A DNA stretch of 64,000 nucleotides, taken from contig CAZZFA010000004.1 of the NCBI GenBank assembly GCA_964653435.1, positions 22,492 through 86,491 on the forward strand, given 5' to 3'. The DNA is from an uncultured Planctomycetales bacterium (GTDB lineage: Bacteria > Planctomycetota > Phycisphaerae > UBA1845 > PWPN01). The notes beneath the pieces were generated by a model, which was not told the DNA's origin, ran no database searches, and saw only the letters and a list, made by a program, of their open reading frames with translations. The position numbers were made by a program, and so were the translations under genes. Of this stretch, positions 1 through 16,079 are shown one piece after another (the stretch's first letter is position 1; the number at the start of each line of letters is the position of its first letter).

Positions 1-2849
1 ACCGGGCTGTCGTGCCCCGGCAGAGCACCCGCGGACACGCCTGTCTGTGCGTTCCAGAGTTTCAGGGTGCCGTCGCGGGATGCGCTCGCCGCGATACGGC
101 CGTCTTGGGAGATGGCGACCGCAGCAACCCAGTGCTCATGGGCGCCAACTCTCCGTACGCCCTTGCCTCCTCGTACGTCCCATACGTGTATCATCCCATC
201 GTCGGTTCCGGCGAGCACCCGCTCCCCGTTGGCATTCATTGTCAGTACCGTGACGTCGTCACGGTGGCCACCGAGCCGGGAGATCTGACTTTCCTTTTCC
301 ACATCCCATACGCGTATCGGTTCCACGCCAGCCGCGGAGACAACGCGATTCCCGTTCTCGCTGATGGCAAGCGCCGACATGGTGGTCCGGTGCCCAGGCA
401 GAGTATGGAGTGTCTTGCGTCGTCGGAGATCCCAGACCTCAAGCCCAGAATGGGAGGGCGCAATGAGCGCACGCTCCCCGTCCCCAGAGACGGCGGCAAG
501 CCTCCGTTCGCTGGCCCACCTCAGTAAGATGCGCTGCTCCGAAGGCTTCTTGAGGTCCCATGCCTTGATCAACCATCCCATGTCGCCTTCCCCGGTGAGC
601 GACAGGATGTGCTCAGAGGTAACCAAGAGGGGGACGCTACCCCACTGACCAGTGTGCTCCGCGAAGACATGCAGAGGCATACGACTTCCAACAGCCCACA
701 CCTTCAATTGACGTTCCGAGCTACCCGACACAAGGCCCTCGGTATCTCTGGACGCGGCGACTCCCCAGACAGCCTTGCGACCCGCCATCCATGCTTCGAT
801 TTGCGCAAGACGAGTGAGTTCCCACACTCTCACAGCGCCGTCGGCGGATCCTGAAACAGCACGTTGGTTATCGCGACACGCCGCTAAGCAGAGGGTTTTC
901 TCGCGACCCGTTATCAGCGTTCCTAGCAGCCAGCCGCTCTCGACATCCCACACCCGCAGAGTCTTGTCATCTGCGGCTGATACGATGCGCCCTCCATCAC
1001 GGCACAGGGCCAACGCTCTTACTTGCCCCGAATGGGCGGCGAACGTTCGAACCGGGTACTCGCCCGGTGCAACCAGACTCGGTGTGAGTGGTCGTAGCCA
1101 CGTTTCTGTCTGGGACCGGCTCGTCTGAGTCAGCATCGTGTGCAAGTCGTGAGCTTTCAGGCCGGACAGACGCCCCATCAGTTGCGGTGCGAGTTGGGTC
1201 GGATCATGACGAAGCGCGGGCAGGGAGGCCCGCAAAGCCGCACGGACATGTTGAAGGGTCTCATCATCGGGTAGCCAGGCATAATCCGCGATCACATCCG
1301 CGGGATCACTCTCGCTAAGCCCTGCCCGAAGCCACTCGGGATCAAGCAGAAGGCTGCGGAGGAATAGGCGCTGCTTGGGCACACTCGACGTAGCCGCGTG
1401 CTCCGGCAGGAAGCGCAGATCATAATCACCCGGCAGCGCGTGCCGTTCGCGTTGACGTTCACCCGCCGCCTTCAGCTTTCGTTGGGCGGCTGTGACGATC
1501 AGGGCATGGGAGCCAGTAACCTCGGCATGGTGGTCTGCTTCCAGGAAGTCACGCAGGGCAACATGGTAAAGGCGGTAACGCTTGGTGTCGTTGTCAGATT
1601 GCTCCGACCGGGCGAACCCTGCGTCCGTCCACATGGCGAGGCTGTTCTGAACCTCTTTGAGCGGGAGACCCAGCCATTCCGCGATCGCTTTGGCCGCCAC
1701 AGATACCCGCGCGGCCGCCAGCGCACAGACAACCTTTGCATGAATATCGTCGAAGGCCGTGTTGTCCTCTTGACGAAGCTCGGTCCAGCGACGGCGGTAG
1801 TAATCAGAGAGACCATCGGGCAAGTCATCAGTGCGAGGATACGCACCAGCGTCGTTTGCGATCGTCTCAATCACATGCTTCAAATACAAGAGATTGCCCC
1901 GGCTCTTGGACCATAGCAGGTCGCTGCATCGCCGCCCATCGAGGTGGAGGCCCCGCATCCACTCCTTCAAGTGGCTCCCGAAAATGTACTTCTCTATGAT
2001 GGTGCGTACATCTTCTTCGTGTTCTGGGGTACCAGAATCCAGGTCGCAGCGCCACGCGTATCCCGTGCCGCGCTCGATCCATTCCGAGTCTTGAGCAGTG
2101 AGGACAAAGAACACGTTGCGAGGAAGGTGCCGAGGTAGAACCCGTTCCACGAAGACTTGTCGGTGCGGGCCTGCAAACAGCACATCCGACGAGTCTATCG
2201 CGATGATGAGGCGTTCCTGATCAAGCTGTTCAAGCGCTCCATGCGCCACCCGGCTCAGGAAGCTGCCGTCGTCGGCGAAACCAACGGGAAGGTCCTCGAT
2301 TGGTAACCGACCCAATTCAATCAATCGAGCACAGATGTTGCCGATGCATGCTCGGCGAGCATCTGGTCCCCATTCTGGTACGTCGAAGTGGTAAACAGGC
2401 AGTTCCCATCGTCGCACCAGTTCGGCAAGAAGAGCCGACTTGCCTGTACCTGGGGGGCCCGTGATCAGCACGTAGCCCGAAGGGACCTCCGGGCTTCGGA
2501 CGAAGGCCTCGATGCCACGAATCATGGATTCCCGGGCACCTTCAGCCCAGGACTCGCGAGATTCGTCGAGGTAGTTCGTGAACGAAAGGCAGTGCTGACA
2601 AAGCCTTGCCGACAGCACATACTCCGTGGCTTGCGCATCTTGCGTAAGCTCGTCGACATCGCATTCGAGGGCGTGTGCAAGCTTCTCGATCAGCTGCTGG
2701 TTCTTGAGTTCGCCCGCCAGGATATCCTGGAGGGACCTGACTGACATGCCTGCCTTGGCTGCGAGTTGCTTGCGTGATAGTCCCGAGTCGTTGCACCTCT
2801 TAATGCACACGTCAGGATTCACCTTCCCCTTGGGCACGGGCTTGCGCAT
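1..2849 (-). CDS. HTH (XRE-like) / P-loop STAND-type NTPase / WD40-repeat protein; C-terminus runs off the left window edge
   Basis: Absent from the ORF track because there is no stop in the window. Hand translation of the minus strand from ATG 2849-2847 gives MRKPVPKGKVNPDVCIKRCNDSGLSRKQLAAKAGMSVRSLQDILAG (HTH). Walker A GPPGTGKS lies at 2436-2459 (aa 131-138). WD40 signatures occur toward the 3' end (GTDDGMIHVWD at 177-209; also DDKTLRVWD, DGAVRVWE). The frame was spot-checked open at 1340-1400 (HAATSSVPKQRLFLRSL). Confidence 0.85.
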   Translation of the reverse strand, partial: MRKPVPKGKVNPDVCIKRCNDSGLSRKQLAAKAGMSVRSLQDILAGELKNQQLIEKLAHALECDVDELTQDAQATEYVLSARLCQHCLSFTNYLDESRESWAEGARESMIRGIEAFVRSPEVPSGYVLITGPPGTGKSALLAELVRRWELPVYHFDVPEWGPDARRACIGNICARLIELGRLPIEDLPVGFADDGSFLSRVAHGALEQLDQERLIIAIDSSDVLFAGPHRQVFVERVLPRHLPRNVFFVLTAQDSEWIERGTGYAWRCDLDSGTPEHEEDVRTIIEKYIFGSHLKEWMRGLHLDGRRCSDLLWSKSRGNLLYLKHVIETIANDAGAYPRTDDLPDGLSDYYRRRWTELRQEDNTAFDDIHAKVVCALAAARVSVAAKAIAEWLGLPLKEVQNSLAMWTDAGFARSEQSDNDTKRYRLYHVALRDFLEADHHAEVTGSHALIVTAAQRKLKAAGERQRERHALPGDYDLRFLPEHAATSSVPKQRLFLRSLLLDPEWLRAGLSESDPADVIADYAWLPDDETLQHVRAALRASLPALRHDPTQLAPQLMGRLSGLKAHDLHTMLTQTSRSQTETWLRPLTPSLVAPGEYPVRTFAAHSGQVRALALCRDGGRIVSAADDKTLRVWDVESGWLLGTLITGREKTLCLAACRDNQRAVSGSADGAVRVWELTRLAQIEAWMAGRKAVWGVAASRDTEGLVSGSSERQLKVWAVGSRMPLHVFAEHTGQWGSVPLLVTSEHILSLTGEGDMGWLIKAWDLKKPSEQRILLRWASERRLAAVSGDGERALIAPSHSGLEVWDLRRRKTLHTLPGHRTTMSALAISENGNRVVSAAGVEPIRVWDVEKESQISRLGGHRDDVTVLTMNANGERVLAGTDDGMIHVWDVRGGKGVRRVGAHEHWVAAVAISQDGRIAASASRDGTLKLWNAQTGVSAGALPGHDSP

Positions 2850-2889
2850 TTCTGCACTCTTTTCACAAGTTTGCACTCAATTCTGCACT
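2850..2889. promoter_or_regulatory. Triple direct repeat TTCTGCACT / TTTGCACT / TTCTGCACT (operator-like) abutting the start codon of the HTH-STAND gene
   Basis: Copies read directly at 2850-2858, 2870-2877 and 2881-2889. They sit in the divergent intergenic region between the HTH-STAND gene and the 3079 operon. Confidence 0.4.
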
Positions 2890-3078: not shown

Positions 3079-3765
3079 ATGCGTCACAACGGATCACATC
3101 GTCACGTTCAGTCAGAGTCGACCAAAGGCAGCAACGGGGCCGCCGGGAACCGTGCACACGCGAACGGTGGCCTCGTCGCCGCGTGTCTTGGTTTCCGCCT
3201 GATGTTCGTTCAACTCCTCATCGACTACATCGCCGAAACGGCGGATCCCGCGGCCATCGCACTCTTTCGGGACCGGTGCCGTGTCTTTGAGCTGCCGACA
3301 GGCACGTTCGTCAATCTGGCCGAATTCCTGTCTGACAGCATCGAGCGGCCCTGGGCCAAACAACCAGCCTCATGCAGATCCAATGTCGTTGAGAACGCCC
3401 ATAACATAAGAGTGGACGTTCTGCTACCTGCACCTTCCCCCTGTGGCGATGTTCGTCCGCATTCGCACTTGATGACCTTCTTCAAGATATGCGCTGCTCA
3501 GGGGCGGAGGTGGTTAGACGCTCATTCGCAGGCATCCGTTGATGAAGTCCAGTGCCATCTCTTGCAGATCTACAATGAGCAGGCCGAGTTCCTGCTCAAT
3601 CATGTGCTCGGTGATGCGGTGCGTGCTCAGGAAGGTCCACGATCAGAATATCGCTGTCCCCTGACAGACCCTGAGGTGAGGCTCTACTTCCCCGTTTCGA
3701 TCGAAGGCAAACAACGTGGTTTCAGACTGAAGGCCGCTTTGGAGGAGGAAGGCCATGTCTCTTAA
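3079..3765 (+). CDS. hypothetical protein (first gene of unknown operon)
   Basis: 228-aa ORF with protein-like composition. Its stop overlaps the SD (GGAGGAGGAA, 3741-3750) and ATG of the next gene, indicating translational coupling. The start is uncertain (ATG 3079 or ATG 3202). No domain recognised. Confidence 0.6.
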   Translation: MRHNGSHRHVQSESTKGSNGAAGNRAHANGGLVAACLGFRLMFVQLLIDYIAETADPAAIALFRDRCRVFELPTGTFVNLAEFLSDSIERPWAKQPASCRSNVVENAHNIRVDVLLPAPSPCGDVRPHSHLMTFFKICAAQGRRWLDAHSQASVDEVQCHLLQIYNEQAEFLLNHVLGDAVRAQEGPRSEYRCPLTDPEVRLYFPVSIEGKQRGFRLKAALEEEGHVS

Positions 3766-4249
3766 CTTGACTCGGGACGAATTGCAGGCTGTCGTCGATC
3801 GACGGATCGGACACCCCGTTCTGGTCCCTTTGGGTGACGTCAATGAGTCCCGGGACTGCCCGCGGGATAACCGCACGCCGCTCGACATCCTGATTGCGCG
3901 CGAGGAGGCAGAGCTGCACATCGCCGAGCGCGTGGCGGAATACATGGCGGTCCACTACGAGGACTGGCGCCTGACACTGAGCCAACTGGGTCCGGCTGGG
4001 GTACATGCTTTAGTCTCTGAGATTCTTGGGGTGCTTCCTGCGCATGATTATGTGGCAGAAGAGGTCGCAGCCTCGCTTGATCTTAATCCCACGACATACA
4101 ACCGCATTGCGGGGCAGACAGGCCTGTCTGATCTCGCGCGAGCCACAGCACAACTCTGCTGCCAGGACGAGCATCTGAGGGAGTTTGCCTGTGAGTGCGG
4201 CCTCCGTAAGCACATCCGTCGCGCTCGCGATGGCGAGGGGGACCGTTGA
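3755..4249 (+). CDS. hypothetical protein, possible HTH
   Basis: 164-aa ORF with SD GGAGG just upstream of ATG 3755. The segment EEVAASLDLNPTTYNRIAGQ looks helix-turn-helix-like (weak). Its stop overlaps the TTG of the next ORF. Confidence 0.65.
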   Translation: MSLNLTRDELQAVVDRRIGHPVLVPLGDVNESRDCPRDNRTPLDILIAREEAELHIAERVAEYMAVHYEDWRLTLSQLGPAGVHALVSEILGVLPAHDYVAEEVAASLDLNPTTYNRIAGQTGLSDLARATAQLCCQDEHLREFACECGLRKHIRRARDGEGDR

Positions 4250-5562
4250 TCGGGAACCGCAACAAGTCGACGCGCCACAGCGGCGTGCAGACGGTACTTC
4301 TCGGCCGGGACCCGCACCATCGAATCGCTGTGCGGGCGAACGTCGTAGCTCGCCGGCATGCTGGTCCCGGTAAGCGATGCGCCGGGCATCGGCGACAAGC
4401 GGCCAATCAGGAGCTGCTGCTGTGCCCAGATCGGAGCGTCACAGAGCTGGTCTCCAGAGTGATCATGCAGCTATCCCATGGTTCAGCAGCGAAAGCACTC
4501 GATCTGTATCTGTCGCTGCCCACGGGTGTGTGGGCTGCCGATATGGAGGCGGCGTTCGATTTGTCTCTTCTCGATGCCGCCATCGTAGTCATCCTGATCG
4601 CCGCACATTTGAATCGCGCGATCATGCCCAACAGGGTGATCATCGGCCACATCAGGAACGCCCAGAACGGAATTACGATCCCGGCAGACTGCCTTGGCGT
4701 TCTCACACGTCTCCACGCAGACGACCCGACATACGCCATACCCGGCCTCGGCGGGGCCCCCTCTCATGTCAATTCAGGGGTGAGCCCCGCCCAGGACGCC
4801 CTCGAGCTAACCCGTCGCGCGTGCACGCCGGTGGAAGATTCTGTGCTTGGCATTGGTCAGCTCCTGCGAATGACCATCACCGATGTGCCTGACCTAGGCT
4901 CTTTGCTCGAGGCTCGAAGCGATGACCCAGAGCCGACCTTGGAGGTCGCGCAATCTTCTGAGTGCGGTACCGTTACGACCGCGCATGACATACTAGATAG
5001 TGTTCTCGTTCGCATCTCCCCCCGTGCACTGGCCGGTCAGTTCGCTCAGCCAGTGTCCCGGGCACAGTCGCTGCACGTGTTCAGCGATCTTACCGTCACA
5101 TCCTATGACGACTTTCTCGCCGCGCTGTGGCCCTTCTACGTTCGACTGCTGGTCGGGACGGGTTCCGGCAACGCCAGCCCTCACGATGCGATCGTGCAGT
5201 CCGACTGCCTCGTTCTCCTCGACCAGGCCTACGCCGACGATGGCGGACTGAAGGCGGCCTGGGCCGAGGCTCGCGACGGCCTTCACGGCGGCCTCCCCTC
5301 GGTCGCCGCGAAGCTGGCTCAGCAGTTCATCAAGAATCAGCAGGCCACGCATGTGACCAGTGTGATTTGTGATGCGCTCAAGGTACGCAGCTGGACGGAG
5401 CGCGTCGCGATCATGCGGGATCTGATGGCCCGTCTGGCCGTTCACATTCGCGACGATGCCGACTTGACTGCCGCCGAGAAGTTCGTGGAGCACGTCGAGT
5501 GGATTGCGCGGACTTACATCCACTCGCTGGACAGTATTCGGACGAGGTGTAACGCATTGTAG
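4246..5562 (+). CDS. hypothetical protein; C-terminus belongs to the island paralogue family
   Basis: 438-aa ORF from TTG. The first ~73 aa are Arg/His-rich and may be non-coding; an alternative start is ATG 4465 (MQLSHGSAAKALD). The C-terminal motif GGL...SWTERVAIMRDLMARL...EWIARTYIHSL aligns with the 5580 protein. Confidence 0.65.
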   Translation: MIGNRNKSTRHSGVQTVLLGRDPHHRIAVRANVVARRHAGPGKRCAGHRRQAANQELLLCPDRSVTELVSRVIMQLSHGSAAKALDLYLSLPTGVWAADMEAAFDLSLLDAAIVVILIAAHLNRAIMPNRVIIGHIRNAQNGITIPADCLGVLTRLHADDPTYAIPGLGGAPSHVNSGVSPAQDALELTRRACTPVEDSVLGIGQLLRMTITDVPDLGSLLEARSDDPEPTLEVAQSSECGTVTTAHDILDSVLVRISPRALAGQFAQPVSRAQSLHVFSDLTVTSYDDFLAALWPFYVRLLVGTGSGNASPHDAIVQSDCLVLLDQAYADDGGLKAAWAEARDGLHGGLPSVAAKLAQQFIKNQQATHVTSVICDALKVRSWTERVAIMRDLMARLAVHIRDDADLTAAEKFVEHVEWIARTYIHSLDSIRTRCNAL

Positions 5563-5579
5563 AAAGGAGAACTGTACAC

Positions 5580-6146
5580 ATGGACATGTCTATTCCGCAA
5601 CTGATTCATGCCCTCCAACCGCGAACCGTAGCCAGCGAAGTCACCAGGGCAATCGACCGGAGGGCGATGCAGTCTCCGAGCGATTTCGAGAAGCTCAGGA
5701 CCTTCAATGGCTATCGCGAGGAACTCGGGCGACACTACAGCCACGTCTACGGACAACCTCTTTCTGCCGCTGAAGCCGAGGGAAGAGGGGAGAGAATCGT
5801 GGACCGGGAGTACCACGAGCGCGGCGGCAATATAGTCAGCGCCTACCAGGACGCCGTCGAATCGACCAACGGCGGACTGCTCGCCCACCGGCAGATGATC
5901 ACGGAGGCCATCAAGGGCGAGGCGACTGAGTTTTACGTGCAGGGAGTGTTTTCGCATTTCTATGATCGCGCCTCCTGGGAGGCGCGTATCGAAGCTGTCA
6001 AGGCGTTCATCGCTTACTGTGGACACGAGCTGACCGGCCTCATCGATCCCGATCACGTTGAACGTCACGCCCATGACTTCCAGGAGCTTGTGCGGGCCTA
6101 CGTCGCTGCGCTGCATCGCAACGCAGCGCTCTTCCGTCGTCTGTAA
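5580..6146 (+). CDS. hypothetical protein, paralogue family member
   Basis: 188-aa ORF with SD AAGGAG about 10 nt upstream. The motif NGGL...SWEARIEAVKAFIAYCGHEL...LVRAYVAAL is shared with neighbours. Confidence 0.75.
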   Translation: MDMSIPQLIHALQPRTVASEVTRAIDRRAMQSPSDFEKLRTFNGYREELGRHYSHVYGQPLSAAEAEGRGERIVDREYHERGGNIVSAYQDAVESTNGGLLAHRQMITEAIKGEATEFYVQGVFSHFYDRASWEARIEAVKAFIAYCGHELTGLIDPDHVERHAHDFQELVRAYVAALHRNAALFRRL

Positions 6147-6193
6147 CAGCAAAGGTCAGGCGACCCATCGCGGCACGTCAACGACAGCAGGAG

Positions 6194-6856
6194 ATGGATA
6201 TGGACGACAGACTGTCCGATGAATCCCTCGATCAAATCGATCCCGAGCTGGTGTGGGCCACCTACGCCCAGAAGGGCCGTGGCCTCCTCGCCACCATTCA
6301 ATTCGACCCGCCGAGCGGCACCTCGCAGTCTGCCGTTCGCCAGTGGGTGGTGAACATCTGGCTGAAAGCCCGCAGGATCTTCGGCGATCCATTTCCAGTT
6401 TCGCGGAGCACGCCCCTGGAGACGTGGCAGACGTGCTCGGAGATGCTGGATCGTGCATGGGGCTATACAGAGGAAACGCTCACGGACCTGTCGCGTGGAT
6501 CCTCAGCGGACCATTATCGTCTTCTCACGGATCTCATTCTGACAATGGCCCACCAGAACGCACGATTGGATCTGGAGTCGCGTATCGGCTGCTGGATGTA
6601 CGAGATGCCTCCCGAGCAGAAGCTGAAGGCGGCTGATGTCTATCTCCGTCGCTTTGGACACTACCTGCCAGAAGTCCTGACTATCGGCAAGACGCGGCTG
6701 TTTTACTGTCGATTCGAAGAGACCCTCAAGCAGCATCCGGCGTTTGTGGACCGGTTTGATCTTGAAGAACGGAACTGCATGCATCGTGAGTCGCTGCACG
6801 AATCGGACCACCGTGGCACCCGACGTGCTCGGTCTCACACATGGAACGCAAAGTAA
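6194..6856 (+). CDS. hypothetical protein, paralogue family member
   Basis: 220-aa ORF. SD AGGAG lies at 6189-6193, so ATG 6200 has better spacing than ATG 6194. It contains CWMYEMPPEQKLKAADVYLRRFGHYLPEVL...RFEETLKQH. Confidence 0.75.
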   Translation: MDMDDRLSDESLDQIDPELVWATYAQKGRGLLATIQFDPPSGTSQSAVRQWVVNIWLKARRIFGDPFPVSRSTPLETWQTCSEMLDRAWGYTEETLTDLSRGSSADHYRLLTDLILTMAHQNARLDLESRIGCWMYEMPPEQKLKAADVYLRRFGHYLPEVLTIGKTRLFYCRFEETLKQHPAFVDRFDLEERNCMHRESLHESDHRGTRRARSHTWNAK

Positions 6857-6868
6857 GGAGGATTGCAG

Positions 6869-7447
6869 ATGAACGCGACACTGGAGGACCTTCTCGATGT
6901 GCTCAACCCCGACACGATGATCTTCGAGATCGAGCGTCGTAGCCAGCAGACACTCGGCCAGGTGAACTGGCCGGATGAGCCGTTTTCGGGGCCGGAGGAT
7001 TTCATGACGTTTCTCATCCAAGTCATGAGAGCGGGTGAGCGGCACATGCTCAACCTGCCCGAGGCCACGGGCGGCCACGATGGCCACTACCGCAGCATGT
7101 GCCGCAGCCTGCTCGATGAGATCTACGGCCCGAGCGGCTTACGCACGGCCTTTGACTTCGCGGTTTCCGGGGAGAACGGCGGGCTCTATAACGTGGTCTC
7201 GCAACTCCTCGGCCGGATGGCCGGCACGTACGCCGGCAATGAGATCGAAGGCCGCATCAACGCATGCTGGAACTCCCTCAGCCACGAGGAGAAACTCGCC
7301 GCGCCGGACGAGTATCTTGCCCGCTACGGCCATCTGCTGCCCCCCGAGTTGGTCGAGGGCAGCGCGCCCGTCGTCCGCGCCCGCTTTCCCGAGATGCTCA
7401 AGAACCATGTCCGTCTGCTCAAGGACCTGGCGCGGGTTGGGCGGTGA
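6869..7447 (+). CDS. hypothetical protein, paralogue family member
   Basis: The track ORF starts at TTG 6863, but ATG 6869 sits 7 nt after SD AAGGAGG. It contains NGGLYNVVSQLLGRM...CWNSLSHEEKLAAPDEYLARYGHLLPPEL...RFPEMLKNH...LARVGR. Confidence 0.8.
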   Translation: MNATLEDLLDVLNPDTMIFEIERRSQQTLGQVNWPDEPFSGPEDFMTFLIQVMRAGERHMLNLPEATGGHDGHYRSMCRSLLDEIYGPSGLRTAFDFAVSGENGGLYNVVSQLLGRMAGTYAGNEIEGRINACWNSLSHEEKLAAPDEYLARYGHLLPPELVEGSAPVVRARFPEMLKNHVRLLKDLARVGR

Positions 7448-7609
7448 TACACCGCAGCCTGGAGTTTGGAGAGCTTTACAGGGCTTGTCGGTAGCGAATT
7501 CTGTCGGGCGAAGATGAAATCGCGCGTCCATAACGACCGCACTCCATATGGCCAGCAGGTCGCCGGCCTTTGGCTACAGCGGCGTCAAGTGGCCGCAGAA
7601 AGGAGAAGC

Positions 7610-7972
7610 ATGAGCAAGTACTATGACAAGTGTGGAGGGCCTGAGCCCCTTCTCCCCAAGAAGGGTCCCTTCGGGCTCGGACGGGCGATGGAGCCGTACA
7701 AGTGTATCGAGCCGGACTGCTTGGGACATCTGAATCCGCGCGAGCGCTGCATACCTCTGCCGACTCGCTGCAAAGCCATAGGCTGTCCTGGGCATAAGTC
7801 TCCCTTCGAGAAGTGCCATGAGCCGATCTTCCCCATTCACTGCTCGGAGATGGGGTGCCCCGGCCATTCTCGTTTTGGCGAGAAGTGTTGGCGTCTGAAA
7901 ACGTACTGCGGTGCCCGAGGCTGTCCAGGGCATGAACCGCCGTTCACGGAGTGCTTCCCGTTCGATCCGTGA
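7610..7972 (+). CDS. small Cys/His-rich protein with four tandem C-x4-C-[LP]-G-H-x6-C units
   Basis: Internal ATG 7610 of track ORF 7466..7972 is preceded by SD AAAGGAGAAGC. The 120-aa product is MSKYYDKCGG...; the repeats are CIEPDCLGHLNPRERC, CKAIGCPGHKSPFEKC, CSEMGCPGHSRFGEKC and CGARGCPGHEPPFTEC. Confidence 0.75.
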   Translation: MSKYYDKCGGPEPLLPKKGPFGLGRAMEPYKCIEPDCLGHLNPRERCIPLPTRCKAIGCPGHKSPFEKCHEPIFPIHCSEMGCPGHSRFGEKCWRLKTYCGARGCPGHEPPFTECFPFDP

Positions 7973-8034
7973 GGGAACCGGTATTACTTTGGTGTCACCA
8001 GCAACATCAAAGCGATCATCACAGACCACGTAAT

Positions 8035-8090
8035 GCGACGCAGGCCTCGCGACCCCGCATGTGGATTCGCAGCCTGCGTCGCTCCTTTCT
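8035..8090 (+). terminator. hairpin (11-bp perfect stem GCGACGCAGGC/GCCTGCGTCGC, 26-nt loop) followed by a T-rich run
   Basis: Stem arms were read at 8035-8045 and 8072-8082, followed by TCCTTTCT. It lies about 60 nt after the stop of the Cys-rich gene, in a 296-nt lower-GC gap before the ATPase gene. Confidence 0.35.
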
Positions 8091-8268
8091 CGGGAGGTGT
8101 GAGCAGGTCAGCATGTACACGATGATTCTCTCGATGTGGTTCATCCTGATGGCGTCTGACCAGCCAGGCATGAGCCGGCATATGGCCACATCGACTGGAT
8201 GGTGCCGGATAACAGCCACCGCGTGTCCATCCAAAGTGCAAGGCTGAAAGAAAGGGAGGACCCAATCG

Positions 8269-10782
8269 ATGAGTAACGTGTCCGTGGAGCAGATTCTGCT
8301 TGCTCGCGCCCAGCCGCACGTGCTCGCCGCCCGCGAGCAGATGATCCTTGCCATTGAAGCACCAAAGGGCTGTTCGGGAGAGGTTGTGCGTCATCCGGTT
8401 TCATTGGAGCCGCCCTTCCGCCCTGTCCTGAGCGGCAACACATCAAGCCTTGTGCCTGAGGAGCACTACGTTCTGGAAGTTCCACCGCAAGAGAGTGCGC
8501 TCGTTCGTGCGCGCCTCTGGGTCTGTATCGAGCAGCCCTGCGAATGGAACAGGAGCGAGCTGTTCCTGAAAGGTCTCTCTCAGGTGCGACAGCGAGTGAC
8601 GATGAACATCTTCGGCAATAAGGATGGGATAGTGCAGCAGGTCGTGTGCCACGGAGAGGACCTGCCCGTGCTCGATTCGGCATTCAAGGGGTACTTCGAG
8701 CACTCCGCTATCTCCATCGCCGGTCGCGATGACCCATTGGCCCTGATACCCGGTGAGCAATGGGCCCATGCGCTCTTTCTGGATGCCTACCCATATCCCC
8801 TCTACTCCAACCGACTGACTTCAATGCGAGAGCTCCGGCAGAGTCCCTATGCGACGCTGTTCGCTTCTCTTGCACAGCTCGAGCCACCGGCCCTGGGCAT
8901 TTTCCAGGTCGTGTTTCAACCGGTGTCGCCTGAGCATGACTGGGGAGGCAATATCCGTGCTCTGACCGACATCGAATTCAAGCTGAAGCGACTGATCGGC
9001 TACAGCGGCTTCGATCGGTATGCGGAACAGCCTCCGTCCGGCGACCGGCATCAGATGGCCATGGAGATCGAGACGAAAGCCCACAACGACAAGCCCATTT
9101 ATGCTGTGGCTCTGCGTATTGCCGCGGTCAATGCCGGTGATCGGGCGGGACACATCTTGCGGTCTCTCGCCGTAGTGACCGGTGGAATCCAGCACGGCGG
9201 CCGGCCACTCCGGTTCATCACCGCGGAAGACTATCGGGGCCACATCGATCCGGTCGGGCTACGGCGCATGTTCGTTCTGGGCACTACCTACCGGCCCGGC
9301 TTCTTGCTGAACAGCGAAGAGCTGACAACTCTCTTTCATGTGCCGCCACCGGAAGTATTCGCACACATCAAGACCATCGTCAACCCACTCGAGGCACTAC
9401 CCATACCGGAAGCCCTCCGGGCCGGGAGCCCGATCGGATTCTGTCCCTATGCCGGCGAGTCCATTCCCATATGCATCCCGAACGAGGAGGAAGCGGAAGG
9501 GCACATTCACGTGATCGGCAGTAGCAGAACCGGCAAGTCGACGCTGCTGCTGCACCGGATTCTGTACCATATCAGGCACCACTATGGTGTTGCGGTGTTT
9601 GATCCGCATGGGACTCTCATTCGTGACCTGCTGTGCGTGATCCCTCCCGAGGAGATGGATCGGATAATCTACTTCGACCCAGGCGACCCACACCGGACGC
9701 CTTGTTACAACCTGTTCGCCTGCGGGGTCAAGGTTGGCCCAGGACGCGTGACGGAGGATGTCGTGTGCAGTTTCAAGAGCTTCATCGATGGCTGGGGTGA
9801 TCGTCTCGAGCACCTCCTGCGGCATGCCCTCTTCGGTGTCCTGCATTTGCCGAACAGTAATCTCCGAGATGTGGCCGACGTACTGCGCAAGAAGTCCAAG
9901 GCCAGTCGCCGTATTCGCGAGCAACTGCGCGGTGCCCTCGGCAATGATGTGGCCCAGGCGTTCTGGGAAGAGGATTTTGAAAACTACCAGCCAGCGGACC
10001 TTTTGCCCCCAGCCCACAAATTGTCGAAGCTGCTCGTTTCCGACACCGTCGGCCGCATGCTCTCCCAGGAGCAGTCCCGGTTCAATCTGCGAGACATCAT
10101 GGATAGCCGCAAAGTCCTTCTGATCGACTTGTCGAGTCTCGGTTCGGACGAGCGCAATGTGCTGGGTAGCCTGCTGCTGTCTTTGCTGCACCTGACTGCC
10201 CTCGGCCGCAAGGGGGATGGAACGGATGCGCCTTTTCGCGTCTACTGCGATGAGGCTCACCGTCTGCTGACGGACGCCATGGAAGACGCGCTCAACGAGT
10301 CGCTCAAGTTCGGCCTGGTAATGACATTGGCTCACCAGCAGCTGGCGCAACTTACCCAAAAGAAGACGCATGCGTTGGCCAGCGTCGGTGCGAGCATCAT
10401 TTTCCGGGTGATACAGCCGGATGCGCAATACCTAGCGAAGACGCTTCAAGGCAAGGTCAGTGCCGATATCCTGGAGACTCTGGACAATCGTGAGGTGGTG
10501 GTTCGTGTTGGCAACCAAGTTGTGCGCGGCCGCACCTATCCTCCCGCCTATCAGAAGGACCCTTCAGTGCGGGACAAGATCCTGGTGCGGTCACGAGAGC
10601 TCTACTACCGTCCGGCAGCGGTGGTGGACGCTGAGATCCGCGCACGCCGCAACCGGTGGGCCGATCCCGGACAGCAGGGTACCGGGGCAGGATCATCACC
10701 TGCCTCCTCCAGTGTGACCGCAGAATCTGCCAGTACACCGAACGACCAAGGGAACGAGGTGTTCACGTATGAGAGCTTCTGA
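8269..10782 (+). CDS. P-loop ATPase of the FtsK/HerA/VirD4(TraD/TraG)-like superfamily with a ~415-aa unknown N-terminal domain and no TM segment
   Basis: 837-aa ORF with SD AAAGGGAGGA upstream. Walker A GSSRTGKST lies at 9517-9543 (aa 417-425). A Walker B-like VYCDEAH lies near 10240-10260, with LAHQQLAQL downstream. The family assignment is from motif recollection, not a search. Confidence 0.9.
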   Translation: MSNVSVEQILLARAQPHVLAAREQMILAIEAPKGCSGEVVRHPVSLEPPFRPVLSGNTSSLVPEEHYVLEVPPQESALVRARLWVCIEQPCEWNRSELFLKGLSQVRQRVTMNIFGNKDGIVQQVVCHGEDLPVLDSAFKGYFEHSAISIAGRDDPLALIPGEQWAHALFLDAYPYPLYSNRLTSMRELRQSPYATLFASLAQLEPPALGIFQVVFQPVSPEHDWGGNIRALTDIEFKLKRLIGYSGFDRYAEQPPSGDRHQMAMEIETKAHNDKPIYAVALRIAAVNAGDRAGHILRSLAVVTGGIQHGGRPLRFITAEDYRGHIDPVGLRRMFVLGTTYRPGFLLNSEELTTLFHVPPPEVFAHIKTIVNPLEALPIPEALRAGSPIGFCPYAGESIPICIPNEEEAEGHIHVIGSSRTGKSTLLLHRILYHIRHHYGVAVFDPHGTLIRDLLCVIPPEEMDRIIYFDPGDPHRTPCYNLFACGVKVGPGRVTEDVVCSFKSFIDGWGDRLEHLLRHALFGVLHLPNSNLRDVADVLRKKSKASRRIREQLRGALGNDVAQAFWEEDFENYQPADLLPPAHKLSKLLVSDTVGRMLSQEQSRFNLRDIMDSRKVLLIDLSSLGSDERNVLGSLLLSLLHLTALGRKGDGTDAPFRVYCDEAHRLLTDAMEDALNESLKFGLVMTLAHQQLAQLTQKKTHALASVGASIIFRVIQPDAQYLAKTLQGKVSADILETLDNREVVVRVGNQVVRGRTYPPAYQKDPSVRDKILVRSRELYYRPAAVVDAEIRARRNRWADPGQQGTGAGSSPASSSVTAESASTPNDQGNEVFTYESF

Positions 10783-11377
10783 GCGGGATTCAGCTGGGGC
10801 GGACGAGGTGCTGCAGCGGCTTGTCGACATGCTGCAGCCGGGTCGGATCATGCGTATCATAGATGAGCCGGTCGACAAGGCGGCAGAGGTGTTCGCATGG
10901 CCGACCGAGTCGGCTGCCTCCCGCAACTTTGCACAAGTGCTCGCATCATTTCTGCAACACATATACCGGCACGCCTTCCCCGACGGCGAACAGCTCTCAC
11001 CGTGGCGCGCCCATGATGAAGTCATCGCTTTGCTCCAGGCTGATGCACAAGACCCTATGGCGGGAGGGTACATTGGCGCCGCGCTGGATACCCGGGATGC
11101 CGAAGCGCCGCCTTGGTATGAACTGGGCGCGCGTATCACCGGGGCCATCAAGACGCGTCTGCGTCGGCAATACGTTCAGTGGGTCCTCGCCATGGAGATC
11201 GACCCCCGCGACTGGTCCATGCAGTGTGCCTTGACGGAGATCGTGATCGAGCGGATGCAGCAATACCTGCCCCCTGAGATCGCTGCGGGCCCGCCCGAGC
11301 GATGGGCGAGCCAGCTCAGCGGCCTGCTTGGCATGTACCTGGGCCTGCAGGACGAGGGGGGAGTACGGTTGATCTGA
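10769..11377 (+). CDS. hypothetical protein, distant paralogue family member
   Basis: 202-aa ORF whose ATG overlaps the last codons of the ATPase gene (coupling). It contains ...ERMQQYLPPEIAAGPPERW..., resembling the YGHLLPPEL motif. Confidence 0.65.
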   Translation: MRASERDSAGADEVLQRLVDMLQPGRIMRIIDEPVDKAAEVFAWPTESAASRNFAQVLASFLQHIYRHAFPDGEQLSPWRAHDEVIALLQADAQDPMAGGYIGAALDTRDAEAPPWYELGARITGAIKTRLRRQYVQWVLAMEIDPRDWSMQCALTEIVIERMQQYLPPEIAAGPPERWASQLSGLLGMYLGLQDEGGVRLI

Positions 11378-11456: not shown

Positions 11457-12578
11457 ATGGTGAGCCAAGCAGCACCAATCCCACCCACCCCCGAGCGGAT
11501 CGCCCTGTTCCGCGCGTGCTTCTCGGGCTTGACGCATGTCCGCGGCACCTACAACCCCGCCACCGGCCGGGCCTTCCCCATCAAGGGACCCGTGACGGAT
11601 GCCGTGATCCGCGACCATCTCCTCGGACTGCGACCGTACGGCGTTTACCTGCTCACCGGCAATGTGACCCGAGCGGTGGTGGCTGATTTCGATCAGGAGG
11701 ATCCGACTCTGCCGTGTGATTTCGTCGCGCAGGCATCGCACTATGGCATTCCCAGTTATTTGGAGCGGTCGAAACGCAATTGGCACGTCTGGATCTTCCT
11801 CGATTCGGCCGGGGTCTCCGCAAGGAAGGCCCGGCGCGTGGCCCAGCTCATACTCGATGAGATCGGTGCGCCCGCCACCGAGCTCTTCCCCAAACAGGAC
11901 TGTCTCAGCAGTACGATTCAATTCGGCAATTTCATTCACCTCCCTTTGTTCGGCCGTGCTCTGGCTCAGGGACGAACCACGTTTGTTGATGTCAAGAACG
12001 GCTTGCGGCCGTACCCCGACCAGTGGGCCGTATTGGCCCAGATCGTGCGGGTCCAAGAACATCAGCTGGACGAAATCATCGCGATCAACGAGCTCGACGA
12101 GCCTCACTCCATAGGGGTGACCACAACCAGCTCCGGTTTGCATAAAACCTTCGGCCTTCTGCCTTGTGCCCAGCGGATGCTCAGGGAGGGGGTAACCAGC
12201 CACCAACGAGTGGCCTGTTTTCGGCTGGCCGTCGCGATCAAGAAGAGTGGTATACCGCTCGACCTCGCCGTGGTGCTCCTGCGGGCCTGGGCCCTGAAGA
12301 ACCGGCCCGAAAAAGGGCGGAGAATCATCACTGAGGCCGAGATCATCGAGCAGGCTAATGCAGCTTATGCCCGGCCGTACCGAGGCATCGGTTGTGAAGA
12401 CGCGGCGATCAGGCCTTTTTGCGATGCCAGCTGCCTTTTGCACCGCCGGCGCCCTCAATGCCGGAGGGTTTTGCCTGAGAGGACGCCTCCGCATCCGGCT
12501 GGCCGGACGCGAGGCTTGCCGGCGCAGGACAACTCGCGGGGGCAAGGGAGCCCAGGATCGACTTCGTCCTCTGGGTGA
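11457..12578 (+). CDS. archaeo-eukaryotic primase-type Prim-Pol replication protein
   Basis: 373-aa ORF with SD GGGAGAG upstream. AEP-like motifs are VVADFD, NWHVWIFL and GNFIHLPLFG. A C-terminal Cys cluster reads CEDAAIRPFCDASC. The last ~55 aa are a low-complexity tail overlapping the convergent gene. Confidence 0.8.
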   Translation: MVSQAAPIPPTPERIALFRACFSGLTHVRGTYNPATGRAFPIKGPVTDAVIRDHLLGLRPYGVYLLTGNVTRAVVADFDQEDPTLPCDFVAQASHYGIPSYLERSKRNWHVWIFLDSAGVSARKARRVAQLILDEIGAPATELFPKQDCLSSTIQFGNFIHLPLFGRALAQGRTTFVDVKNGLRPYPDQWAVLAQIVRVQEHQLDEIIAINELDEPHSIGVTTTSSGLHKTFGLLPCAQRMLREGVTSHQRVACFRLAVAIKKSGIPLDLAVVLLRAWALKNRPEKGRRIITEAEIIEQANAAYARPYRGIGCEDAAIRPFCDASCLLHRRRPQCRRVLPERTPPHPAGRTRGLPAQDNSRGQGSPGSTSSSG

Positions 12579-13416
12579 GATCCCCACCTGCAGTCCAGAT
12601 CGGGGCCCACAGGCCCTCTCGCCGCATACGGGAATCTTCGGTCGCCCACACGAAGTCCGATGGCGGCGTCTGTCGGATGAGCTGACACAAGCCGGCAATG
12701 CGGGAGACGCCGCCGGCAACAAACAAGACACGGAAACCGATGAACGGCTTGTTGCCGGTCGCGAAACGCTGATAGTCCCCGCTGCGAAACCATGCCTGAT
12801 ACCGCAGGATCTTGGATTGGACATCACGGTTGGGGCCACGGCCGCTGATCCGTGGCTGTGTTCCCATGTCTACCTCCAGGAAGAAAAGGAGCGTCTTGTC
12901 GACGCCCCGATGCCGGATGGCGAAGACGCCATCGGGAACAAGGTCGGCCTGCCCGCTGATCGGCTTGTTCTCCAAGGATTGCGTGTCGGCCGGAACCGGC
13001 CGGTTCGTGCTGATTCGTGACGTCGCGAGATTCAGGGTTTCAAAGCCGCTGAAGTGGCGGGCCAGGAGAGTCAGTTGGGCCCACACCTCGCTTGCCACCT
13101 CGTCGTGTTCGGGGTGCTTCAGCCCGCGGACGGTGAGCTGTTCGGCCGTGATGTCGGCATCAATCAGGCCCAGGGCCTTCAGGCAAGTGACGCCGTTGGC
13201 CGACAGCGACACCAGCTTTTCCGGGCGACCGCTGCCCCGACCGAGTCGGCTGGAGTCGGCCTCGATCAGTCCCTGCTCATGAAGAATCCTGAGTCGGTGT
13301 CGGGTAGCCGGACCGTTCCGCTCACACCGTATCGCCAGTTGTGTCGCTGTCAGCACCCGATGCTCGGCAATCGTCAGGAGCAGCTCATGATCACGTTCCG
13401 AGAGAACGAAGCCCAT
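12409..13416 (-). CDS. replication-relaxation family protein (winged-helix N-terminus)
   Basis: The track ORF starts at GTG 13428, but ATG 13416 follows SD GGTGGAG. The N-terminus MGFVLSERDHELLLTIAEHRVLTATQLA...RHRLRILHEQGLI and the later FFLEVDMGT match my recollection of Pfam Replic_Relax (unverified). Confidence 0.8.
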   Translation of the reverse strand: MGFVLSERDHELLLTIAEHRVLTATQLAIRCERNGPATRHRLRILHEQGLIEADSSRLGRGSGRPEKLVSLSANGVTCLKALGLIDADITAEQLTVRGLKHPEHDEVASEVWAQLTLLARHFSGFETLNLATSRISTNRPVPADTQSLENKPISGQADLVPDGVFAIRHRGVDKTLLFFLEVDMGTQPRISGRGPNRDVQSKILRYQAWFRSGDYQRFATGNKPFIGFRVLFVAGGVSRIAGLCQLIRQTPPSDFVWATEDSRMRREGLWAPIWTAGGDLTQRTKSILGSLAPASCPAPASLASGQPDAEASSQAKPSGIEGAGGAKGSWHRKKA

Positions 13417-13607
13417 CACAGTCTCCACCTTGCGGGCTCGATTGCAGGAACCGAACCGCGCATCATCCTGTACTGCGAGAGGAATCCGATCTGGATTTCA
13501 ATCGAGCAGCCCCGCACCCCTATGAGATGCAAGACAACTCATCGTGAGGCTCGACACTCGCAAACACCTGAAACCAGAAACCCATTTGACCCGCTGGTAT
13601 TGATAGA

Positions 13608-14246: not shown

Positions 14247-14600
14247 ATGAACGAGCGCGCCGAAGAATATGTCTTGCCGACCAAGCTCATCGAGGAGCTG
14301 ATCGAAGCGATACAGGACCTTCGAAGTGCCAGGAACCCGGCCGAGGCGATGAGGCCCCTCAGCATCGATGAGGCGGCCAAGACTCTCCGTTGCCGGCGAA
14401 GCGAAGTAGAGAAGCTGATTGCGAACGGAGCAATGCCCTACATCAAGCGCAATGGCCGACGCTACATCCTGCCGTCAGATATCGCCCAGTGGCTGAAGAA
14501 TGAATCGGAACGACAGCTTCCTCCCAAAGGCAGAAGAAGACCCCGGCACCGTCTGAAACCAGAGGACGTCGATCCGGCCTTACGGGAGTTTTTTGAGTGA
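14247..14600 (+). CDS. excisionase-type helix-turn-helix DNA-binding protein
   Basis: 117-aa ORF. LSIDEAAKTLRCRRSEVEKLIANGAMPYIKRNGRRYILPSDIAQWL is typical of the excisionase/MerR-like HTH_17 class. It is convergent with the integrase and overlaps it by 21 nt. Confidence 0.75.
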   Translation: MNERAEEYVLPTKLIEELIEAIQDLRSARNPAEAMRPLSIDEAAKTLRCRRSEVEKLIANGAMPYIKRNGRRYILPSDIAQWLKNESERQLPPKGRRRPRHRLKPEDVDPALREFFE

Positions 14601-15920
14601 TCGCGTCTTGTGCTTCTTCTTCCAGGCGTTCAGCTCTTTGGAGTCGAGCGTCTTGTTGATCCACTCCACGACTTCCTTCGTTTCTGGGGTCAGAGGCTTG
14701 AGGTACTCATCCGCAGCGTCGGACCTGCCGTGGCCAAGGAAGGTCCTCAGCTGGGCGATACCGGTACCGGGGCGAGCCGCGTACGCAGTCGCACCGAGGT
14801 GTCGCCAGACGTAGAAGCCCTCTTTCCACTGCTCAAGGTCTGCTCGAATCCGGAGCTTTCGCCAGGCTTGGGCCACATCGTCGGAACGCTTGAACGGGGT
14901 TTTCGCGGGTTTTCGCGTACTGGTGCCGTTCAGCATCTCGTCTATGGTCTTGGTCATCACCCAAACCAGGGGCCTGCCCGTTCTGGTGACGAAGAGCAAC
15001 TCATCCGCCTGTCTCGGTGTGCTCTTCAGGTACTCCCTAAGGTGAGCCCACACCTGCGGCCGCATCACTCCGAAACGGGGAAAACCCGTCTTGCCTCGCC
15101 GCATGTCGTAACTGTCCGCGTCGAAGTGGACCAACCGGGCACGGGCCAGATCGTCGTTCCCAAAACCCAAGCCGAGGCCCATCCAGATCCACAGACGCTC
15201 GCGGACCGTGGCGGCCTCGAGGAGTGTTTGAATCATCTTGACGGTCGGAATCTGCCGGGTCTTCTTCGTCTCGGTGCCGCCGAACTTCCTGACGTCCTCT
15301 TGACTGAACGGTAGCCGGATACTGAAGGGGGCTCGCCGTGCAAAGCGCACGATCTCCCAGAAGCGCTGGCGGTGTTTGTTGACCTGCGAGGCGCCCAACC
15401 GTGTGACGAGGGAGAGCATCATGGACTCGTAGTCGGTTGCACCCAGGACTTGATCGAAGGGCGTAGTGCCCAGCTTGGTGCCGTACGTCTCCTTGCACCA
15501 CCGCAGGATGCGGACGACTTGCCTACGGTTGTCGTCGAACACCCGCAGGCTGATGGTACCCTTCGCTCGTCTCGCCTCCTCCAGCCGCACCCGTCGCCTT
15601 TCGTGCTGCAGGTAGGCCTCTGCTATCGCCGGCAGACTATCGTCCAGATCCCCCTTGCCGACTTCGCTGTCCCGTGTAACAATAGCGGCGGCTTGGTCGT
15701 AGTTCTCGACGACCCACCGGTGGTACGCGAGTTCGGACTCGGTTCGGTCCGTCGAGAATCGCTGTCGCCTGGGCTTGCCGGCGGGATCGCGGTATGATGT
15801 GTAGTAGCGGCCCGTGCCGGGTTCAGGCTTGTCGGAGAGCCTGGGGATGCGTCGTTTTCGCTGGGGCTTTTGCTCGGTCATGACGGACATGATACAATCA
15901 ACCCTGGCGAGTGGCAACAT
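14580..15920 (-). CDS. int: tyrosine-type site-specific recombinase/integrase
   Basis: 446-aa ORF. C-terminal catalytic-region motifs are MRRGKTGFPR, WRHLGATAYA and FLGHGRSDAADEYL. The start could also be ATG 15890 or 15881. Confidence 0.9.
   Translation of the reverse strand: MLPLARVDCIMSVMTEQKPQRKRRIPRLSDKPEPGTGRYYTSYRDPAGKPRRQRFSTDRTESELAYHRWVVENYDQAAAIVTRDSEVGKGDLDDSLPAIAEAYLQHERRRVRLEEARRAKGTISLRVFDDNRRQVVRILRWCKETYGTKLGTTPFDQVLGATDYESMMLSLVTRLGASQVNKHRQRFWEIVRFARRAPFSIRLPFSQEDVRKFGGTETKKTRQIPTVKMIQTLLEAATVRERLWIWMGLGLGFGNDDLARARLVHFDADSYDMRRGKTGFPRFGVMRPQVWAHLREYLKSTPRQADELLFVTRTGRPLVWVMTKTIDEMLNGTSTRKPAKTPFKRSDDVAQAWRKLRIRADLEQWKEGFYVWRHLGATAYAARPGTGIAQLRTFLGHGRSDAADEYLKPLTPETKEVVEWINKTLDSKELNAWKKKHKTRSLKKLP

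Positions 15921-16007: not shown

Positions 16008-16079
<72 letters not shown>

Follow-up and report, generated by a model that had tools for sequence, protein, structure and literature searches.

Paralogous helical proteins encoded around a HerA/FtsK-type ATPase gene in a putative family of tRNA-integrating mobile elements

What do several small, mutually similar proteins do when their genes surround that of a hexameric-type ATPase on a bacterial genomic island? The question is raised by a 64,000-nucleotide (nt) stretch of DNA from an uncultured Planctomycetales bacterium (Phycisphaerae; GenBank assembly GCA_964653435.1, contig CAZZFA010000004.1, positions 22,492 to 86,491 of the forward strand), hereafter the window, in which an earlier note made from the sequence alone had singled out five such open reading frames (ORFs). 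All five exist as described, on the plus strand: A (4246-5562, 438 amino acids (aa)), B (5580-6146, 188 aa), C (6194-6856, 220 aa), D (6869-7447, 192 aa; its ATG lies inside a TTG-initiated ORF that begins at 6863) and E (10769-11377, 202 aa). The 837-aa ATPase is encoded between D and E (8269-10782, plus strand). The five proteins share one all-α domain of ~190 residues, which stands alone in B, C, D and E and forms the C-terminal part of A.

Within the window, BLASTP connected C to D most strongly (36% identity over 104 aa, E=2e-13, with the 6863 ORF used for D in all comparisons), followed by A to D (E=3e-5), B to D (194 aa, E=2e-4) and E to B (180 aa, E=0.011). Cross-group matches rose to 1e-7 to 1e-9 after addition of orthologues from three related contigs, and hidden Markov models (HMMs) of single orthologous groups recovered members of the remaining groups with E values from 1e-5 to 1e-18, whereas none of 5000 shuffled controls did better than 0.015. 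In hhalign comparisons of group profiles that drew on 32-47 loci or orthologues each, A and B aligned at 100% (E=6e-42, 192 columns), A-E at 99.9%, B-E at 99.7%, C-D at 99.4%, A-D at 99.3%, D-E at 99.1% and B-D at 99.0%, each alignment spanning 183-195 columns. The proposal of a diversified paralogue family thus withstands all-against-all comparison. That unrelated small helical proteins resemble one another only by chance or composition would fit the weakness of some within-window pairs on their own (E=0.011 to 0.5) and the lack of any column that is invariant across all groups, but is refuted by the shuffle-controlled HMM searches and by hhalign scores of 99-100% over ~190 columns; the orthologues of each member are, in addition, syntenic in 42 genomes. 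We give this explanation practically no weight.

Since the hhalign alignments run over ~190 columns, the shared unit is the whole protein in the stand-alone members and the last ~190 aa of A. The earlier note had proposed a C-terminal module of ~60-80 aa preceded by differing N-terminal parts. The similarity it saw is real, but the module is too short: homology among B, C, D and E extends over their full length, N-terminal parts included, and A is the only paralogue with a foreign N-terminus. Protein E, ranked there as the weaker member, is equally well supported once orthologues are used. The motifs GGL, SW and Y-L-x-R-[YF]-G-H-x-L-P are present, although none is invariant across the groups. 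A suspected resemblance to N-terminal extensions of AAA-family ATPases is not supported, as hhalign of the domain against the window ATPase gave 0.3% and no ATPase fusion was identified among the best 150 of 1916 relatives, the longest of which has 574 aa. A relationship of the domain to the ATPase, or to p385 and p192, two further proteins of the same gene cassette, was rejected by hhalign, and the domain HMM detected no further copy elsewhere in the protein sets of loci L001, L003 and L004.

As had been supposed, no named domain is involved. The paralogue domain of A, B, C, D and E has no family match at E<=0.1 in Pfam-A, NCBIfam, PHROGs or PADLOC and no sequence match among PDB structures; its database relatives are all called 'hypothetical protein' and carry no precomputed Pfam match. 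B is the most conserved member, with a mean pairwise identity of 0.58 (47 loci), followed by D (0.41), A (0.37) and E (0.28). The AlphaFold2 (AF2) model of B contains ten helices (pLDDT 90.7, pTM 0.84) and has no Foldseek structural neighbor in PDB or BFVD. D orthologues are 40-91% identical. C is found only in the window and in locus L003, in none of the other loci, and is a recent, lineage-specific duplicate of D. The paralogues are near neutral or acidic overall, with basic C-terminal tails in B ('FRRL'; family consensus 'TSSxFRRL', Arg in 93-97% of sequences), A ('LLR.L') and D ('RR.GR').

What does A add to the common domain? In the AF2 model of the window protein, an α/β N-domain is followed by a disordered linker (aa ~160-242) and the helical paralogue domain (aa ~245-438, nt ~4978-5562). 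A profile of A orthologues compared with the PDB matched the protease domain of Archaeoglobus fulgidus LonB (E=7.6e-9, profile positions 9-210), human mitochondrial LONP1 (1e-6), Escherichia coli Lon (0.005) and, weakly, RadA (E=0.009). Foldseek of the window A model returned the E. coli Lon protease domain (probability 0.6, TMt 0.40). The domain is not detected by Pfam Lon_C, and A carries a faint precomputed ChlI/ComM-type Pfam match. The nucleophilic Ser of Lon aligns with a conserved 'G[FY]SAD' motif of the A family and the Lon Lys with 'P.K[LV]'; this Ser-Lys dyad is kept in 32 of the 35 A proteins aligned. It is lost in the window, L003 and L004, where Leu occupies the Ser column and Val (window, L004) or Tyr (L003) the Lys column, and these three proteins also lack a middle region of ~115 aa. 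With Leu and Val at the dyad columns, window A is a predicted pseudo-peptidase. The Lon-type peptidase is thus probably active in most elements that encode A and dead in the window lineage. Like Lon and LonB (MEROPS S16), A has Ser and Lys in equivalent positions of an alignable N-terminal ~200 aa, but in A this part is joined to a helical domain instead of AAA+, and the window copy has lost both catalytic residues and ~115 aa. No ATPase domain and no fused AAA+ unfoldase module was found in A.

The family extends far beyond the window. A profile search yielded 794 relative clusters at 90% identity, all unnamed, and an exhaustive HMMER scan yielded 1916 representatives at 50% identity, 1379 of them at E<=1e-10. 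Among the best 150 of the 1916, the domain occurs as a stand-alone protein of ~190 aa, at the C-terminus of proteins of ~545-575 aa and, again C-terminally, in a few proteins of 244-477 aa. At least 42 loci in species-representative genomes carry the cassette. The hosts are Planctomycetota (Phycisphaerae, Pirellulales, Brocadiia), Desulfobacterota including Desulfocarbo indianensis, Verrucomicrobiota/Kiritimatiellota including the cultured isolate Pontiella sulfatireligans F21 (locus L038), Zixibacteria, Ignavibacteria and one Bacteroidales metagenome-assembled genome. When reference proteins were mapped onto all loci, the genes came in a highly constant order: p385, p192, A, B, D, the ATPase (~830 residues), E and an archaeo-eukaryotic primase (AEP)-type primase-polymerase. 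Almost wherever it was seen, the cassette (p385, p192, A, B, D, ATPase, E) formed a syntenic backbone beside the AEP gene, with an integrase in several loci, and the paralogue family is confined to it in every locus examined. The ATPase-E pair is conserved in all loci, nearly always adjoins the AEP gene and stays together even in L004 and L019, where it is inverted. The sub-lineage of the window, L003 and L004 lacks p192 and an upstream block of genes present in many relatives; it has gained a gene for a Cys-rich protein and, in the window and L003, C, and has a STAND or NACHT gene next to the cassette.

The setting is that of an integrated element. The first ~16 kb of the window form an island of about 60% GC (59-61%), against about 68% (64-70%) in the rest. 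Its right edge is a tRNA-Gly(ccc) gene (16008-16079, plus strand; ARAGORN and Rfam), where GC climbs from 60% to 68%. A minus-strand STAND gene runs off the left edge of the window, and the left boundary of the island must therefore lie outside it. Several loci have a tRNA gene (Ser, Leu or Gly-ccc) next to the integrase or to AEP. The integrase borders the tRNA gene, and the element extends 5' of that gene, in the window, L006 and L046; in L038 the tRNA follows the AEP end, and no integrase was detected there. A tRNA-Gly(ccc) gene is adjoined both by the window element and by the Phycisphaerae chromosome locus L019. The contigs L050-L053, from four ENA assemblies, carry the same element and all end ~180 bp past the integrase, which suggests an assembly break at the attachment site. 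The tRNA positions and contig breaks are consistent with an integrative mobile element that targets tRNA genes, and the backbone p385, (p192), A, B, D, ATPase, E and AEP defines a family of such elements that no library or paper searched describes.

In part the element is familiar: it is a tRNA-integrating mobile element with a toolkit of FtsK/HerA-family ATPase, integrase, excisionase and primase-polymerase. Elements that combine integrase, prim-pol and FtsK/HerA-family ATPase include actinomycete integrative and conjugative elements (AICEs) and archaeal elements of the pT26-2 family (PMC6972569). The window element matches both in its integrase, excisionase, AEP, FtsK/HerA-superfamily ATPase and integration beside tRNA genes and differs in its hosts, which are Planctomycetota, Desulfobacterota and Verrucomicrobiota among others. 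We know of no AICE or pT26-2-family element with the paralogue family or the Lon-domain fusion. New, and undescribed in the libraries and literature searched, are the ~190-residue helical domain family and the element as such; full-text literature searches returned no description of either.

Which kind of motor do the paralogues accompany? The ATPase consists of a soluble N-terminal region of ~400 aa, which had no match anywhere searched, a P-loop domain, a low-complexity linker and a conserved acidic/aromatic C-terminal peptide (NEVFTYESF in the window; family consensus F.YDEF). Its Pfam match to TrwB_AAD_bind is marginal (21.0 bits against a cut-off of 20.5) and that to DUF87 weak; TraD, VirB4 and CD1115 models match weakly as well, the NCBIfam TraD models far below their cut-offs. 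Further matches were obtained with PHROGs (phrog_5156, a family of unknown function, 8e-29) and with the mad8 and HerA models of PADLOC. A 28-sequence profile compared with the PDB matched HerA-type helicases best (1.3e-5, 7e-5 and 5e-4; range 1e-5 to 1e-3), HerA of defence complexes among them, followed by DptH and TrwB, for which matches were weaker than for HerA. Walker A K423 and Walker B D661 and E662 occupy invariant columns. By these matches the protein is assigned, with Walker motifs intact, to the HerA/FtsK/VirD4 superfamily of DNA translocases, in agreement with the hexameric-type ATPase that had been recognized beside the paralogues. A hydropathy scan found no transmembrane-like segment in the ATPase, B, C, D or E, and isolated borderline segments only in A and a few neighboring proteins.

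What, then, might the paralogues and the ATPase do for the element? The earlier note had suggested transfer, partition or conflict, and all three are weighed below. Other tasks have candidate genes: AEP and a Replic_Relax protein for replication; the integrase and an excisionase-like helix-turn-helix (HTH) protein for integration; and, in the larger relatives, an S24 repressor and an extracytoplasmic function (ECF) sigma factor for regulation. As no other candidate is left for transmission, we assign this task to the paralogues and the ATPase, and we tentatively favor a reading in which their complex serves transmission of element DNA, by mobilization or packaging. The hexameric ATPase would be the base of a single soluble hetero-oligomer, in which each paralogue would have a place of its own as a subunit or adaptor, and this complex would act as a DNA-handling machine that mobilizes or packages the excised, AEP-replicated element. 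A would contribute a ring-forming Lon-like module, proteolytic in most relatives and purely structural in the window lineage, and docking may bring together the conserved basic tails in which B, A and D end and the acidic/aromatic peptide at the C-terminus of the ATPase. The charges of these tails are complementary, which speaks for such a complex; E and the ATPase, with a 14-nt overlap between the ATPase stop and the E start, are coupled in translation, and their genes move together. Four paralogue lineages have been retained separately, as orthologues in a fixed order across phyla, which argues for non-redundant subunits.

Several observations weigh against this assignment. Transmission is attributed by elimination, not on positive evidence. 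The cassette encodes no transmembrane segment beyond borderline ones, which is hard to reconcile with conjugative transfer, and neither a capsid, portal or terminase nor a type IV secretion system (T4SS) family was detected by Pfam or PHROGs in the window or in the larger, 30-kb relatives. The element is absent from IMG/VR, from the phage collection and from the plasmid collection. HerA-type ATPases also drive systems unrelated to transfer, for example defence complexes, and HerA proteins of such complexes are among the best PDB matches of this ATPase.

A functional parallel is offered by type IV coupling proteins, which work with small helical partners, as TraD of F does with TraM and Legionella DotL with IcmS/IcmW/LvgA. 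The cassette resembles these systems in a P-loop domain putatively related to VirD4/TraD/TrwB, in the flexible linker that leads to a conserved acidic/aromatic peptide at the C-terminus of the ATPase, in the several small soluble helical proteins encoded alongside and in the nearby gene for a nickase-like Replic_Relax protein. In contrast to coupling proteins, the ATPase lacks an N-terminal membrane anchor and T4SS genes were not found; unlike the known partners, the paralogues share no detectable sequence or fold similarity with any solved structure. A conjugative T4SS or a secretion system related to type VII (T7SS-like) was rejected since no membrane protein was found, and the same lack disfavors classical conjugation. 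A plasmid was rejected as well, with no relative of B in PLSDB and only distant DUF87/coupling-protein matches for the ATPase.

The HerA matches bring in the main rival, a conflict module for defence, counter-defence or addiction, in which a HerA-type hexamer would operate with A as a Lon-type protease effector and the other paralogues as helical adaptors or sensors, in the manner of the supramolecular HerA-Sir2 or HerA-DUF4297 defence complexes. Besides the PDB matches to HerA-type helicases and DptH and the PADLOC matches of the ATPase, the predicted solubility of all cassette proteins agrees with such a module, as do the conflict genes that flank it. In the window, the divergently transcribed STAND gene occupies the position at which L004 has a NACHT protein; it encodes an HTH-STAND NTPase-WD40 protein, of which 957 aa are visible (<1-2873, minus strand; domain matches), and its N-terminal HTH is followed by a P-loop STAND-type NTPase (GPPGTGKS), with WD40 repeats at the C-terminus. 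Many relatives carry the upstream block that is not in the window (L060 5851-16905, L062 6935-17372), with genes for JAB-like, E2-like and E1 (ThiF) proteins, a ~930-aa HerA-like NTPase (p930), two small proteins, a ~620-aa beta-propeller and a Ser/Thr kinase. The block combines an ATPase and a kinase with a set for ubiquitin-like conjugation; PADLOC models matched its NTPase (mad8, 2.6e-15) and its kinase (mad6, 1e-51). In contrast, A, B, C, D, E and p385 match no PADLOC model, the protease dyad is dispensable in the window lineage, and the cassette is a stable backbone beside AEP while the conflict genes at its flanks vary, a pattern that points to a core function and not to cargo. The likeness to Sir2-HerA and DUF4297-HerA consists in the HerA-type best PDB match, the soluble partners and the conflict-gene-rich neighborhoods; the partners here are not Sir2 or nuclease effectors (no NurA nuclease, Sir2 or DUF4297 partner was found in the window island or related loci), and the cassette is element backbone. 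Taken together, we consider a conflict module possible but doubtful.

Two known conflict systems were examined as identities of the locus and rejected. MADS is represented by domain-level mad6/mad8 likeness in the larger relatives only; the window encodes no kinase and no methyltransferase, and among the cassette core only the ATPase has PADLOC matches in the window (mad8, HerA), the other MADS components being absent. By definition, a TOTE conflict system has TPR, OB, TBP and effector components (bioRxiv 10.1101/2025.09.15.676423). The proteins scanned yielded no match to any of them, and the AEP-TOTE name of the primase match thus reflects only the nearest AEP model.

The position of the ATPase-E pair, nearly always at the AEP gene, raises a further alternative, in which the paralogues are replisome or segregation accessories and the ATPase is a replicative or partition translocase that works with AEP. 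The helical proteins would load, clamp or position the ATPase on the origin, and the Lon-like domain, like that of RadA or ComM, would serve as a ring platform. The DNA helicase RadA, a weak match of the A profile, has a Lon-like domain that forms rings, the faint ChlI/ComM-type match of A points the same way, and the AEP proteins are short (330-370 aa) and lack a helicase domain of their own. However, 32 of 35 A proteins keep the Ser-Lys dyad, which suggests genuine proteolytic activity beyond any scaffold role, the near-neutral or acidic paralogues are unlike basic DNA binders, and the ATPase-E unit can be inverted away from AEP. To our knowledge, no FtsK/HerA-family ATPase serves as a replicative helicase. 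We regard this alternative as unlikely.

Finally, the fusion of a peptidase to a helical domain evokes particle assembly. Viral protease-scaffold pairs share a C-terminal domain (herpesvirus UL26/UL26.5; phage lambda C/Nu3), an arrangement that targets the protease into the assembly. A, too, joins a peptidase to a helical domain of which adjacent genes supply separate copies; here, however, these are diverged paralogues from separate genes and not nested in-frame products, the peptidase is of the Lon type rather than the assemblin or ClpP type, and no capsid, portal or terminase was detected. In a bold proposal that we deem improbable, the cassette would encode the machinery for morphogenesis or transfer of a temperate element or virus that represents a new class and lives in anaerobic-sediment bacteria. 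B and its paralogues would form the shell, nucleoprotein or scaffold of a membrane-less particle, which the HerA/FtsK-type motor would fill and the Lon-type protease would mature. We know of no bacterial virus or conjugative system with this architecture. The whole larger element is about 30 kb long, with the S24 repressor and the ECF sigma factor at its far end; downstream, larger relatives carry a ribonucleotide reductase gene, an excisionase-like gene, the integrase and a tRNA gene. The ribonucleotide reductase gene lies 3' of AEP in about ten related elements (e.g. L006 15587-17893). Integrative or conjugative elements seldom have such a gene, which is more characteristic of viruses, and together with the S24 repressor it lends the larger relatives a virus-like flavor.

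A prophage was rejected, with no structural genes and no relatives in IMG/VR or the phage collection. PHROGs matches are limited to the ATPase family of unknown function, primase, integrase, excisionase, nicking replication-initiation and transcription regulators; the sole 'terminase' match is a P-loop-only match of the HerA-like p930. The missing capsid, portal and terminase genes and the absence from both virus collections disfavor any recognized virus type.

The most conserved genes of the element are the helical family, in four to five copies per element, and the Lon-domain fusion. The family is not rare, with about 1900 clusters at 50% identity in at least six phyla, and the element has no membrane protein and no recognizable capsid or secretion gene that would account for its movement between cells. 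If the paralogue-ATPase complex does move the element, it would represent a new way of moving or packaging DNA; if it is a conflict module, it would be a new HerA-centered protease system.

In the window, the plus-strand cassette has the organization of a tight operon, with overlaps of -4 and -14 nt, gaps of 12-47 nt and AGGAG-type motifs upstream of the B, C, D and ATPase genes. This spacing and the Shine-Dalgarno (SD)-like motifs fit a coupled operon, as the earlier note had argued. The packing is interrupted by a non-coding gap of 296 nt 5' of the ATPase gene (7973-8268), which contains a perfect 11-nt inverted repeat (8035-8045/8072-8082). At the head of the cassette, p385, a single protein of ~385-433 aa in relatives and always the first cassette gene by synteny, has its counterpart in two coupled ORFs (3079-3765 and 3755-4249), which are 48% and 39% identical by BLASTP to consecutive halves of the 433-aa protein of L004. 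The two ORFs overlap by 11 nt, with a strong SD (GGAGGAGGAAGG) before the second ATG; the split could be a gene fission or a frameshift. HTH matches of p385 are weak and non-significant. The gene for the Cys-rich protein follows D (7466-7972, plus strand, probably 7610-7972 for 120 aa, as called on an identical contig). It is found only in the sub-lineage of the window, L003 and L004; its translation contains about four repeats of a C..GCPGH....(E)KC-type motif and had no family match in library scans.

The genes downstream of E, like the island GC and the tRNA-Gly gene, agree with the mobile-element setting that the earlier note had proposed. The AEP-type primase-polymerase (11457-12578, plus strand; Pfam AEP-TOTE 2e-32, PADLOC PrimPol 4e-27, synteny) is presumed to be the replication protein of the element. 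Its gene adds a C-terminal extension of ~40 aa rich in Arg, Pro and Ser that orthologues do not have, and this extension overlaps by 170 nt the convergent gene of the Replic_Relax protein (12409-13428, minus strand), which comprises a winged HTH and a nickase-like domain (Pfam Replic_Relax 1e-15; phrog_9381, 'replication initiation by nicking', 2e-10). The excisionase-like HTH_17 protein (14247-14600, plus strand; Pfam HTH_17 1.6e-10, phrog_66 excisionase/regulator 9e-7) and a divergent tyrosine integrase (14580-15920, minus strand; phrog_216 integrase 2.9e-8 over residues 213-423, no Pfam match) complete the set.

Among the related loci, L045 departs from the regular order, with A, B and the ATPase each matched more than once, and may hold two tandem or rearranged copies of the cassette. 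A scan of the intergenic regions of the window for repeats gave nothing convincing. A direct repeat, CATTTCTGCACT/CAATTCTGCACT, with its copies 31 nt apart, lies at 2847-2889, in the intergenic region from which the STAND gene and the cassette diverge, and is a possible operator.

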